The notes under the pieces: model-generated | What the model saw: only the letters and a program-made list of their open reading frames with translations | What the model was told of the DNA's origin: nothing | Database searches by the model: none | DNA from: Amoebidium appalachense | Lineage: Eukaryota > Protista > Ichthyosporea | Reading direction: 5' to 3' | Assembly (NCBI GenBank): GCA_963693365.1 | Contig: CAVNZM010000011.1 | Coordinates: forward strand, 8,359,937 to 8,423,936 | Length of the DNA: 64,000 nt | Program-made: the position numbers and the translations under genes | Shown here: positions 33,571 to 39,500 of the stretch, in pieces | Layout of the letters: every line of letters begins with the position of its first letter | How positions within the stretch are numbered: the first letter of the stretch is position 1

Positions 33571-36500
33571 ATGAGGACCAGCAGCGGCCTGGCTGGTTCA
33601 GGTGAGTGACAGAATGAGTGGTGATGGAGAGGGAGGGAATGGATGGGGGAGGGATATAGGGAAGGGGAGAGGTCAGAACGGAGGGCAAGGGGCTGGGAGG
33701 GTATAAAAGATGGTGTGAGGAGATGGTTGTGAGAGGTGCTCCGTCTAACGTTGTTTGGTGTGGGTGTCGGGTGTTGATTAAATGGCGTGTGTGTGCGCGC
33801 GCGTGTGTATGTGCGTATTATGGAACCATTTTTGTGTGTTTGTGTTTGGATCTGGATGTGCGGCTACGTGTATTTGTGCGTGTGTGAATCTTAGACGTCT
33901 CGTGGGGTGGTAACAGCAGCATGACGTGTTGTTTGCAAGAGTATCGATTGTGTGTGTGATATCTCTAGATGTTATGTGTGTGTGTCTGCGTGTGTGTCTG
34001 TGTGCGTGCGTGCGTGCGTGCGTGCGTGCATGCGTGCGTGCGTGTGGGTGTGTGTGGGTGTGTGTGTGTGTGTTTGCGTACATATGCATGTGTGTTTATC
34101 TTTGCGTGTGTTTGGCACTACATGTGCGGCTACGGGTATGCATGTGTGAAGCATTTCTGTGCCTGCAAGCACGGGTATGGATTGTGTGCGTAACCTCTTT
34201 CAATGTTTGGTTGAATGCATGTGTGGGTTTATTGTGAGCGCATGCGCCTTTGTGTGTCATGCGCGCACACGCGCATGTGTGTGTGTGTGTGTGTGTGTGT
34301 GTGTGTGTGTGTGTGTGTGTGTGTGTGTGTGTGTGCGCGCGCGCGCGCGTGTGTGTGTGTGTGTGTGTGCGTGTGTGTGCGTGCACGCGTGTGTGCGTGT
34401 GTGTGCGTCTGTGTGTGTGTGTGTGTGTGTGTGTGTGTGTGTGTGTGCGTGTGCGTGCACGCGTGTGTGCGTGTGTGTGCGTGCACGCGTGTGTGCGTGT
34501 GTGTGCGTCTGTGTGTGTGTGTGTGTGTGTGTGCGTGTGTGCGTGTGTGTGTGTGTGTGTGTGTGTGTGTGTGTGTGTGGTGTGTGTGTGTCAGCGCGGT
34601 GTGTGCATGCGCGCCCACGTTGGAGTGGGTGCGAAGGGAATTAGCACGTGTATGTGTGTGTGTGTGTGTGGAGTGTGTGTTTGGTATCTTCGTGGGTTCG
34701 TGTGTAGGGGAGATATGGGTGTGTGAGCATGTGTTTTATTGTTGCGTCACCCCAAGGTTACCGGAGTTTGTTGGCTCATCTGTGGGCAGGGTAACTCCCC
34801 CCCCCCGCCCCCTTCCCCTCCCAAAACTTGCGAACACACACATGCCCAAGCACCTGTGTCCACAACATGCACACTCACACGTGCACACACACTGGCACTT
34901 ACGGAAGCACGCACCCATGCACAAACATATGCACAAACGTGCAACCACGCACGCGCACGCACACAACACACACACACACACACACACACACACGTACACA
35001 CACATACACAGTAAACAGACACTCTCATACATACACACACGCTTACACCCACCCACACACATATACACTCACGCACAGACGCACACGCACACACAAACAC
35101 ACACCCACACCCACACAACAACAACAACCCCACCCTTTCTGCCTTTATATCTTTCTTTTTCAACCTAGTCAACCTACATCTAGTATATTTAGTTGTGTCC
35201 ACTCACCTCCACTCAACCTTTTAACCCTCACTCCCATCCGTACCAATCATTTCTCGCAGCGGGCCCCCGCGCGTATACCCCCCCCCCGTTCCTGTGGCCT
35301 CGGTGGAACGTGGTCGAACATTCTCGACGGGAGCAGTCCGCACGAGTAGTGTGGGCTATGAGTTTATGGGGAGCAAAGGAACGCTGATTCCTAGCCCGAG
35401 TATAACCAGGGTACACCCGGATGGTTGGAAGGTGTGTAAAGTTAGGTAAAAATTAAAATTATTAAGTATTACTTTAGAACCCAAGCCTTTATTCAGAGTC
35501 GGTAATCACACCCCTCTTCCTCTCCCCACAAAAGTTCGTGTTGTATTCGGTGTACTTTATCTATTCTTCGATCTCACAATCACCGCTCCCACCCCTCCCC
35601 CCCCCCCCCGCTCGTCTCTGATCAAGACGGGTGACCTACTCATGTTCAAGTGAAACAGTATCTGAGTTGGGTTTCGTTAACGAGGGGAATAGGTCGAAAC
35701 TCGGGTACTGTGGATGACGTGGGCCCCCCCTGAGGATGGGCTCTGCTTATTATGCATACTCTTTATGTATGGCTTGCATTCTGCATCGTGTTATCCGTTT
35801 GTTCTTGTGTACTTCGTACTTTTTGACGCATTCAAACCCCCCCCCCCCTCTCCCCCCCCCCTTCCTCCCCTCCCCCCTCCCCCTCCCCCCCTGCTTGTCC
35901 ACCCACTAATGCTCCGAATCAAGAGTTAAATTAACCTCCCTGCACCCAGCAACAACCCAAATACACTGAATCACATCATGATGTCATGTTTCTAAACTCA
36001 CAACCACGACCGACACACGGGAGGGAACACACACACACACACACACACACACACACACACACACACACACACACACACACACACACACACACACACACAC
36101 ACACACACACACACACACACACACACACACACACGCACACACACACACACGCACACACAACGCATGCGCACGTGCGGACACACACACACACCAATATCCC
36201 CCCTCCCCCCCCCCCCCCCCCCCACCTACCAACCCCTCCCCCCCTCCCACCAACCCACCCACACAACAACACTTTGAAAACACTTGCACATATACGCACA
36301 CGTATGCACACACACACACACACACATACAGGCGCGCGCGCACGCGCGCACACACACACACACACACACACACACACACACACACACATACACACACACA
36401 GATAACACTCTCACAAACTTACTCACACACACAGACAACACTCTCACAGACTCACTCCCACTCCCACTCACTCACTGGCACGTAAACAAACACACACACT

Positions 36501-39500
36501 CATACATATCCTCCCCCCCCCCCCCCCCCCCCCCCCCCCCCCCCCCCCCCCCCCCCCTCCCCCCTTCCCCCCCCCCCCACACACACACCCCATCCACACC
36601 CCCCCACACACACAATCCAATCACCAACCCAAATCACAACAATCCATTCACCAACCCAAATCACAACAATCCAATCACCAACCCAAATCACAACAATCCA
36701 TTCACCGCCCCTCCACACTCACCCGTCCCAACCTTCCTCCCCCAGGTTTGCACACACATATTCACCGTTTTGCTCACCTTGCTTGCATAAGCAACCCCGC
36801 TCGTCTTTGATCAAGACGGGTTGACCCGCCCAAGTTCAGTTGATGCTGCTGTCTGAGTTGGAGCGTCGTATATACGCGAGCTAAGGGATCGAAACTCAGA
36901 CGCAATTGATGACTTGGGTCCTCCCTGAGGATGGGCTCTGCTTATGACGCATACTGTGCACATGGCTGATGTTGCATACTTGAATATTTGCCTTTGCATG
37001 TGTCCTGCACCATGCTTCTCGTCGTGCATGCGTACTTCGTACCGTGTTCCGCATTCTCCCTCTCCCCCCCCTCCCCCCCCCCCACACACACCCCCCTGGC
37101 CGCCCCCTTATATCCAATCACCCACACCTAACCAACCTTTCACCCCTTCCTACCCCCCCCCGTTTTTTTAACACCCACCTAAAACCTTTTTAACACCCAC
37201 CTTTTTTTTTAACACCCACCTAAAACCTTTTTAACAGCCACCTTTTTTTTTAACACCCACCTAAAACCCCCTTCCCCTGTCTTCATCCCCATTCGAACCA
37301 CCTCCATCCCCTCATTCCCCCCTCCCCCTCCCCCCTCCCCCCCCCCCCCCCAACACACACACACACACACACACAGATGCGCGTGTTCACGCTTCTCGAC
37401 GAGCCCGAGTCCTCCCTGTTTGCGATGGGCTATGCCCTTGTGGTTGCGCTATTGATAGTCGTCTATTTGGTGGTGTTGTGGGCTGGATCGGTGCAGGTGT
37501 TGCATGTGAGCAGCGATTATCGGTGGTATATAGAGGTAAGTTTTTTTTTTTTTTTTTACGCGCATATTGTTATTACGTTATTGATGTTAGCATTGTCATT
37601 TTATTCTTTGTTTTTTGTTATTCCTTCTTTCTTTCTTGTTTTCTTCTTTTGGTTTTCTTGCTATTTATAGTCGTCTATGTGGCGGTGTTGTGGGCGGGGT
37701 CGGAGCAGGTGTTGCATGTGAGCAGCGATTATGGGTGGTACATAGAGGTAAATTAACGTTTGAGGCTTTTTTGGTTTTTTTTGCCCCTGCTTGTTTTCCT
37801 TCTTTTTCCCCCCAAGTATGGGTTGGGAACCACGCGCGAGAGATTAAAGATGTCGAAACCCATGCTTTTGTGGAGCCATAGGAACCCTCCTGATGATGGG
37901 CTCTGTTCAATTTTTTCTGCCTGCACGCTTAAATTGTTTGATTTTGGATTTCCCAATTTTGTAACGTTTTGTTGTTGCTCTTTGTTGTCTCCTCCATATT
38001 TCCAACCCTCTAACGCGTACATCACCCCCCCCCCCCCCCCCCCCCCCCCCACCTTTTTTTTTTTTTTTCCTGGGGGGGGGGGGGGGGGGGGGGGAGGAAT
38101 GGATGGGGCCAAGGAGGGGAGGATGTGGGAGACAACGGAGAGGGAGGAGGGGAAGTGTGAGATGCCTGTGTGTGTTTCTGTGTGTGTGTGTGCGTGCACG
38201 CGTGCGTGTGTGTGCGTGTGTGTGCGTGTGCGTATGCGCGTGCGTGTCCACGCGCGTGTGTGGCTGTGTGCGTGTGCATGTGAGTGTGCATAGTTGGGGG
38301 GGTGGGGAGGGGAGGGGGTTAGTTAGCTATTTGTAAGTATGTATGCACACACCCTACCACAAGCACACAATCATATGCAGATGTGTGTGCGTGCACACAC
38401 ACACACACACACACACACACACACACACACACACACAACCAGACACACACGCACACAACTACACCTGCATACAGCTACAACATCCTAGTTCCCCCTCCCT
38501 TCTTTTTTTTCCATCCTGACCAACTAAACTACAGACGGTGCTAGTGGCGTTTTTCACCCTAGACTACGTGGCCCGTCTGCTTACAACCCCCCGGAAGCGA
38601 AAATTCATTTTCAACCTCCTCAATACGATGGATTTACTCTCCCTCTTGCCCTATTACATAGGTACCCCCCCCCCCCCCCCCCCCCCCCCAAAAAAAAAAA
38701 AAAAAAAAAAAAAAAAAAACGCCGCAAAGCCCACACTTCACCTGTTTTTCTTCTCTTTCTGTTTTTTCGCCAATCCATCATGTCACCCACCCCTTCCATT
38801 ATCTGTGTGTCTACATGGCTGATGTTGCATACTTGAATGTTTGCCTTTGCATGTGTCCTGCACCATGCTTCTCGTCGTGTATGCGTACTTCGTACCGTGT
38901 TCCGCATTCAACCCCCCCCCCCCCCCCCCCCCCCCCCCCACACACACACACACCCCAACCCCACCCTACCCCACCTTTTGCAATCTGCATTGTGTTGTCC
39001 CTCATGAAAGTGTAATTTTTTCGTTTGTAAAAGATTCCGACCCACCCCCCCCCCCCCCTCCCCCCCCCCCCCCCCCCCCCCCCCCCCGTTCTTTCCTCCC
39101 GCCCAAAAAGGATCCCCCCCCCCCCCCCACACACACACACATACACCCTCCCCATTCCCCACAAACACACACACACACACCCTCTCCCATCACACACCCT
39201 CCACCATAACACATCGACTTCCCCCACTTCGTTTCCTCCACCCCACAACAAACTCTTTCCACCCGTCATCACATCTTTCCCCCCTTTTCCACCCCTTTCC
39301 ACCTCCCCCCTCCCCCCCCCCCCCCCCCCCCCCCTCCCCCCCCCTCCTCCCACACAGAGCTAGCCCACTATGACGTTAAACATTTGGACGTGCTCCGATC
39401 TCTGCGTGTTGTTCGTCTTCTTCGTCTCTTCCCCATCCTCAAGTATGCAAGTAGAAGGTCTACGATGATGAGAGTGTTCATTACTGCTTTGAGAAAGGTA

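Follow-up and report, generated by a model that had tools for sequence, protein, structure and literature searches.

The RNA of a repeat family in the ichthyosporean Amoebidium appalachense, a single-celled organism related to animals, holds, as read from its DNA sequence, the whole catalytic core of the hammerhead ribozyme in the non-circular block order S-G-C. The repeat is abundant and about 210 to 310 nt long, and about 18 pieces of it were found with BLAST and nhmmer in the 64,000-nt stretch that we analyzed (contig CAVNZM010000011.1 of assembly GCA_963693365.1, positions 8,359,937 to 8,423,936; hereafter the window, in whose coordinates all positions are given). Three of its members, A, B, and C, on the plus strand, are the main subject here. 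Their block order and core make the repeat a candidate variant of the type-SGC hammerhead. It is very probable that an SGC-type fold has been under selection in the source elements, and we predict, with fair confidence, that the core really cleaves. The best explanation, which we hold with slightly better than even confidence, is that the repeat RNA would be a slow self-cleaving SGC hammerhead within a non-autonomous retroelement moved by a poly-C-inserting Penelope-like element (PLE) of the Chlamys/Naiad type. The SGC order was previously reported only from environmental RNA and appears here in a genomic repeat of a protist.

Hammerhead core and block order

In the predicted RNA, the 5′ strand of stem III runs through a GUU triplet into the 5′ strand of stem I; after an interval, C-GAAA leads into the 3′ strand of stem III; and after a second interval, the 3′ strand of stem I is followed by CUGANGA, one extra U, and a G. 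This order is unreachable by circular permutation of the hammerhead. In copy A1, block S (35656–35671, plus strand) comprises the stem III 5′ strand, the GUU triplet with H17 at 35668 and the predicted cut 3′ of it, and the stem I 5′ strand GGG; block G (35694–35710, plus) comprises U11.2, C11.1, GAAA, and the stem III 3′ strand; and block C (35727–35744, plus) comprises the stem I 3′ strand CCC, CUGAGGA, the extra U, G10.1, and the 5′ strand of stem II. The core of B (36851–36939, plus) has H17 at 36859, stem I at 36860–36863/36921–36924, C11.1 at 36890, GAAA at 36891–36894, and CUGAGGA at 36925–36931, and that of C (within 37814–38024, plus) has H17 at 37824, C11.1 at 37854, and CUGAUGA at 37890–37896. 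The linker between stems I and II forms a palindromic hairpin in A1 (35674–35683, plus) and a different 10-nt palindrome in B (36867–36876). An earlier sequence-only reading of this region had noted that the spacing of the motifs is kept, and it is: GUU to GAAAC spans 27, 31, and 30 nt in A, B, and C, and GAAAC to CUGANGA spans 29, 29, and 30 nt.

A descriptor that admits the hammerhead blocks in any order matched the window five times, always as S-G-C (H17 at 35668, 36859, and 37824 on the plus strand and at 59967 and 63304 on the minus strand) and never in a circular order, and no SGC match arose in 150 block-wise dinucleotide shuffles of the window. CUGANGA by itself occurs at chance frequency, with 20 matches in the window versus 22 expected. 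All five copies have a complete core (CUGANGA, G10.1-C11.1, GAAA, and the NUH triplet), which is invariant at 16 of 16 positions, as against 18 of the 78 other shared columns. Sequence variants among contigs of the B family also miss the core (0 of 26 listed places), an observation to which we give no weight, the family being young. Rfam returned no match at its gathering score across the window, and between 35550 and 38050 it gave only microsatellite-driven microRNA matches with E values up to 5. Beyond the window, none of 155 pattern-scan loci (58 metagenome and 97 viral) passed the SGC descriptor, and a more specific pattern was found in no viral contigs and no prokaryote genomes.

Eckert et al. 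(2023; PMC10085705, in the excerpts used here, as for all papers cited below) define type SGC by this block order and give cleavage rates of 0.007 to 0.19 per min; in those excerpts, permuted hammerheads come from metatranscriptomes, and none is placed in the genome of a known organism except one doubtful bacterial GCS candidate. The window copies resemble the published SGC ribozymes, including HRIMA-1, in the S-G-C order, the full core, and the extra U after CUGANGA; a candidate helix beginning at the end of stem III, or close to it, would close block C as in the published ones. Their geometry is different: in HRIMA-1, stems I and II have 5 bp each, stem III has 6 bp, and about 3 nt link stem I to stem II, whereas the window repeats have a stem I of 3 to 4 bp, a stem II of 2 bp followed by a mismatch, a stem III of 9 to 13 bp in A to C, and a distance of 27 to 31 nt between the cut site and C11.1, which in A and B includes a hairpin. 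Unlike the SGC ribozymes from metatranscriptomes, the window family is genomic and abundant. The published SGC descriptor allows linkers of 0 to 8 and 0 to 15 nt, requires a stem I of at least 4 bp, and accepts CUGAUGA only (PMC10085705); it would miss the window copies because of their longer linkers, their shorter stem I, and, in A and B, the G at the N of CUGANGA. An abundant genomic family with a geometry of its own, which combines a long stem III with a stem II of 2 bp and a hairpin between stems I and II, would mean that standard descriptors and Rfam overlook a ribozyme class in eukaryotic DNA, and it would offer natural variants for studying pseudoknotted hammerhead folding and possible action in trans.

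Stems, covariation, and folding

The sequence-only reading had argued from compensatory covariation across three divergent subfamilies that RNA structure is under selection. That argument is supported mainly because stem III covaries and the core is invariant; the remaining stems that it listed contribute little. Stem III pairs at 35656–35667/35699–35710 in A, 36851–36858/36894–36901 in B, and 37814–37823/37858–37867 in C (all plus strand) and is, as had been claimed, kept with different sequences: 47 of 50 cells are paired, and 6 of 10 pairs have changed on both sides, which 4 of 500 shuffles reach, while slid controls are 17 to 48% paired. Across four lineages, 30 of 32 variable cells are paired versus 22.8 after shuffling. 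These controls ignore relatedness, the structure was derived from the same related sequences, and the shuffle figures are not p-values. Stem I has the arms that had been quoted for it but contributes a single double change, with 13 of 16 cells paired versus 12.5 shuffled and a length of 3 to 4 bp. In stem II, there is no double change (15 of 24 cells paired versus 15.2 shuffled). Covariation gave no support to two alternative pairings, an in-register stem II of 7 bp and a helix that begins at position 10.8, and both were rejected.

The outer parts of the fold bear less on the question. The basal stem P3 (35639–35646/35716–35723 in A1; 36829–36836/36911–36918 in B; plus strand) pairs in both, and between A1 and B one of its pairs has changed on both sides and another on a single side. 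P2, the 5′ hairpin (35611–35631 in A1; 36800–36820 in B; plus strand), has 7 bp and is identical in A1, A2, and B, and it therefore provides no evidence of covariation. The outer stem P1 of B (36786–36793/36939–36946, plus strand) forms eight of eight pairs and encloses P2, P3, and block C, and that of A2 (60047–59799) forms six of eight. The 5′ hairpin and the outer stem were said to enclose A and B; for the outer stem, this describes B and A2 but not A1, where poly-C stands in place of its 5′ arm, and this stem too is conserved without covariation. The claim that deviations are mostly G-U, pointing to RNA rather than a DNA cruciform, is likewise borne out in part. Among 104 cells in stems, G-U outnumbers A-C by 20 to 5 (p = 0.004, a biased value, as the registers were chosen on the sense strand), and stem III by itself gives 6 to 0. 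The sense strand folds 4 to 11 kcal/mol better than the antisense strand in five of five copies; the fold z-scores of B are nearly equal on the two strands (−3.33 versus −3.21), and that of A2 is +0.27.

The strand after G10.2 may have a partner other than that in stem II. The bases just after stem III can pair with positions 10.5 to 10.9 in a candidate 5-bp helix X, located at 35710–35714/35742–35746 in A1 (35710–35746, plus strand), where it would close block C and correspond to the I/II helix that published SGC ribozymes have, and at 37870–37876/37900–37906 in C (plus strand). All five pairs form in six of eight copies and four in A2, and at least two pair types occur at each of the five positions; other registers compete. 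By analogy with the I/II helix of HRIMA-1, block C would be looped off by helix X. Where A and B are full-length, this role falls to the basal and outer stems, which fill it in a different manner and leave block C single-stranded at the foot of a long rod.

Mobilization, mechanism, and alternatives

Contigs matching B number 6746 of 2,914,798 in run X12 and 3173 of 2,073,789 in run X1, counts of assembly pieces rather than of copies, from two runs that are both possible sources of the window DNA. The 3′ end of the B family is fixed at 37056 and is followed by AAA and poly-C (51 contigs in X12 and 46 in X1), while its 5′ ends are ragged and often joined to poly-C at an internal C-run. Some 3′ ends meet truncated copies through short C-rich linkers, forming head-to-tail joints. 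The family has no terminal inverted repeats, the fixed 3′ end and ragged 5′ ends being found instead. Of the 12 intact 3′ ends in the window, 11 lead into a 25-nt stretch with 19 or more C; for comparison, about 2% of positions immediately precede a C6 run. A 3′-terminal stem-loop (35806–35833 in A1, plus strand) lies just before the AAA and poly-C, is common to A- and B-type tails, and was present in all six such tails examined, with one change from U-A to C-G. The host poly-C tracts may in part have been made or lengthened by the activity of the element.

These features match what is described for PLEs. In the account of Craig et al. (2021; PMC8557442), (C)n and (CA)n are the targets of Chlamys elements, which are 5′-truncated, form partial tandems, and include non-autonomous families. 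The window family is like Chlamys/Naiad elements and non-autonomous families such as MRC1 in its 5′ truncation and partial head-to-tail insertions, and like Chlamys in (C)n targeting; unlike these PLEs, it yielded no open reading frame (ORF) or autonomous partner in this analysis. By analogy, the partner of the repeat is probably Penelope-like. Ichthyosporeans do not occur among the Naiad/Chlamys hosts described in the excerpts of PMC8557442. Naiad and Chlamys are said there to mostly lack canonical hammerheads, with 10 entries flagged as "core" (9 on the Naiad sheet and 1 on the Hydra sheet) and 8 as "half-core." In some entries of the same paper's supplement, near parts 19 and 24, we recognize by eye the S-G-C order in two octopus Naiad 3′ ends, with a 5-bp stem III, a 6-bp stem I, and a stem II that starts with G-C, G-U, and a purine-purine mismatch, as in the window copies. 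Another Naiad, also judged by eye, has S-G-C order with a 10-bp stem III and a 5-bp stem I but lacks a G right at position 10.1. Five other consensus sequences of Naiad, placed next to or among nematode entries (near parts 13 to 15), appear by eye to be complete in C-S-G order, with Watson-Crick stems I, II, III as well as a I/II helix that vary between families; in the sources cited here, only two natural CSG sequences had been published. We found no report of SGC or CSG hammerheads in retroelements in a literature search with subscription journals outside its coverage. The window family would also give a testable answer to why Naiad and Chlamys retroelements seem to be without the ribozyme carried by other PLEs.

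The extra U after CUGANGA is a further link to PLEs, whose minimal hammerheads have an additional nucleotide that separates positions 9 and 10.1 and work as dimers (PMC4209133); HRIMA-1 shares this feature. The window family also resembles non-long-terminal-repeat (non-LTR) retrozymes and PLE minimal hammerheads as a set of short non-coding hammerhead repeats with a PLE link and a short helix I (PMC4209133; bioRxiv 10.64898/2026.07.22.740005; see also PMC7229834). Retrozymes have type I hammerheads in the circular order CGS, usually in tandem arrays and with a very short helix III, whereas the window family has the SGC order, mostly dispersed single or truncated copies, and a long helix III. 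We rejected assignment to the non-LTR retrozymes, which are tandem type I hammerheads, given the SGC order and the dispersed copies. A 2026 preprint traces the retrozymes of animals back to the ends of PLEs, with no SGC form mentioned in the excerpts used (bioRxiv 10.64898/2026.07.22.740005), and a 2026 paper, as excerpted, merely cites hammerhead permutations (PMC13725137).

How might such a ribozyme act? In the sequence, the long stem III closes a loop that contains GUU, one stem I strand, and C-GAAA, and a downstream single-stranded block contains the other stem I strand, CUGANGA, the extra U, and G10.1. We propose that the two loops would kiss through stem I (3 to 4 bp) and the short stem II to form the hammerhead core, which would cut after GUU (35668, 36859, and 37824). 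Cutting would be slow, or would occur only in some conformations or in tandem, and the relaxed fold would be mostly off, so that sense copies survive in introns. Cleavage may process read-through or partial-tandem transcripts, freeing element RNA from host pre-mRNA, possibly for circularization, while the RNA that is reverse transcribed would stay continuous across the cut site, either uncut or re-ligated. The PLE protein may prime reverse transcription at the G-rich strand opposite poly-C, with the 3′ stem-loop serving as the handle for the reverse transcriptase.

Several observations weigh against this slow self-cleaving reading. Neither stem I nor stem II shows a covariation signal over shuffles, and stem II is weak, with two contiguous pairs, G-C and G-U (only the first in D, which has G-A at the second), ahead of a purine-purine mismatch; the mismatch is G-G in A, C, D, and most B-family contigs. 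Helix X is broken at two of its five pairs in B, leaving three. The docking duplexes are worth little (−1.4 to −3.9 kcal/mol for stem I and −2.2 to −5.2 kcal/mol for stem II), and stems I and II together offer about 5 to 6 contiguous pairs versus 10 in HRIMA-1. Opening both modules costs 8 to 23 kcal/mol, or 20 to 28 kcal/mol when a 10-nt tether is also freed for folding in cis, as nearest-neighbor estimates that contain no pseudoknot or tertiary terms. Among genic copies, 15 of 16 are in sense, the opposite of what a fast ribozyme would lead one to expect; this bias tracks the strand of the poly-C tracts, window introns being C-rich on the sense strand and 17 of 18 copies having more poly-C than poly-G runs around them on the element strand. 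The loose ends listed include no accumulation of 5′ ends at the predicted cut site, and depth is continuous across it; the integrated copies therefore derive from uncut or re-ligated RNA. No Penelope-type reverse transcriptase was seen in the 64-kb window, and in the supplement passages of PMC8557442 used here, no permuted core was clear at the 3′ end of a Chlamys element.

Because the docking duplexes return only a few kcal/mol against this opening cost, the relaxed RNA is predicted, under this energy model, to be mostly off, and action in trans becomes a real rival, if an unlikely one. The ribozyme would then assemble mainly in trans or between tandem copies, with the CUGANGA loop of one unit docking on the GUU/GAAA loop of another, single intronic copies silent, and cutting confined to dimers or partial tandems. 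The covarying stem III of 10 to 13 bp, together with the basal and outer stems in A and B, places block C opposite the GUU/GAAA loop on the rod, and a trans-ready fold is 4 to 16 kcal/mol cheaper than a cis-ready one. The dimeric PLE minimal hammerheads (PMC4209133), the existence of head-to-tail joints, and the tolerance of introns for sense copies also fit. Yet published SGC ribozymes in which stem III adjoins the I/II helix with no linker cleave co-transcriptionally (PMC10085705), docking in trans would rely on only 5 to 6 base pairs, and most window copies are single or truncated. We speculate, with considerable doubt, that the whole Naiad/Chlamys branch of PLEs uses non-circularly permuted hammerheads (SGC and CSG) and that the SGC form here is a kissing ribozyme of two loops whose cutting requires an encounter between two element copies. 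It would be a copy-counting switch that leaves thousands of sense intronic copies harmless and has tandem transcripts cut into circles that serve retrotransposition.

The mobilizing machinery may also be of another kind. It is improbable, though compatible with the other alternatives, that the repeat is a short interspersed nuclear element (SINE)-like element moved by a microsatellite-targeting long interspersed nuclear element (LINE), or an independent retrozyme-like RNA circle, which acquired its ribozyme apart from PLEs. A conserved 3′ stem-loop and a short AAA end resemble LINE/SINE 3′ recognition, and no PLE protein was found in the window. Against this, the targeting of (C)n, the partial tandems, and a hammerhead in the 3′ region with an extra nucleotide after A9 all fit PLEs, as do the permuted cores in published Naiad ends (PMC8557442).

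Somewhat less probable still is that the retroelement retains the fold for binding a protein or recognizing the template and that the hammerhead core no longer cuts at a useful rate. The weakness of stems I and II and their lack of covariation would agree with this, as would minimum-energy folds in the off state, integrated copies that span the cut site with no ends mapped there, and the sense bias in introns. What speaks for catalysis is the core itself, whose 16 of 16 positions, including G10.1-C11.1 and the NUH triplet, are the same in four lineages while A2 and B are only 73% identical; such invariance despite this divergence is hard to explain without it. That the stems are instead inverted repeats in the DNA whose complementarity is maintained by template switching or by gene conversion, with coincidental core motifs, is very improbable: the linker palindromes of A and B are perfect and B folds nearly equally on both strands, but the invariance of unpaired core bases largely refutes this, and the excess of G-U over A-C, the absence of SGC matches in shuffles, and ends that are fixed 3′ and ragged 5′ without terminal inverted repeats all point the other way.

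Family copies, host genes, and neighboring features

Of the five copies with a full core, A1 (35606–35836, plus strand) lacks the 5′ arm of the outer stem and is followed by AAA and poly-C; B (36746–37056, plus) has family homology from 36746 to its fixed 3′ end; and C (37814–38024, plus) is 5′-truncated, has a different tail, and runs into poly-C. A2 (59799–60047, minus), which has the outer stem, and D (63100–63335, minus; boundaries approximate), a fourth lineage, are both in sense within introns of a Sla2/HIP1-like gene. Truncated or decayed members, listed without strand, lie at 5520–5660, 7717–7837, 17973–18058, 38808–38911, 40638–40707, 44255–44349, 53836–53901, 54143–54246, 54561–54877, 57546–57659, and 58702–58906. 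The internal C-run that precedes CUGANGA is where several of them begin, and some sit in stacks, one at the poly-C end of another. Directly behind a truncated copy, a decayed A-type copy (57292–57520, minus) has a unit of about 10 nt tandemly expanded at its GAAAC block, resembling telomere-like repeats. A 27-nt tandem repeat with 3.7 copies (36607–36706, plus) stands just upstream of B.

The window is eukaryotic DNA in which (CA)n and poly-C are abundant. Copies A1, B, and C lie, all in sense, in introns of a voltage-gated K+ channel gene (35261–41081, plus strand; Ion_trans match) with exons at about 35261–35431, 37378–37538, 39357–39500, and 40964–41081; A1 and B sit before the exon that begins at 37378, and C sits after the same exon, which ends at 37538. 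A candidate exon at 38513–38663 was excluded, having stops in every frame at those bounds. Directly upstream of C, the 3′ part of exon 37378–37538, with its splice donor, recurs as a duplicate of 90% identity (37660–37754, plus). The exon matches of the Sla2/HIP1-like gene (ANTH plus I/LWEQ, minus strand) span 63913 to 48245. Its I/LWEQ piece gave a single match among 55 candidates, at 86% identity, to a EukProt protein labeled Ihof, which we take to be the ichthyosporean Ichthyophonus hoferi, and a piece of about 21 codons (residues 787–807 of P0010) is present five times at 50488–51701 (minus). An ABC transporter gene lies on the plus strand within the window. Two remnants of copia-type LTR retrotransposons lie at 11902–15761 and 26511–29441 (plus), the second with integrase and RVT_2 matches and the first judged from its ORFs. 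Between them, an ORF without introns for a 548-amino-acid reprolysin-type metalloprotease (21610–23256, plus), in a genome otherwise rich in introns, has best relatives that are 25 to 40% identical and is possibly a horizontal transfer or a retrogene.

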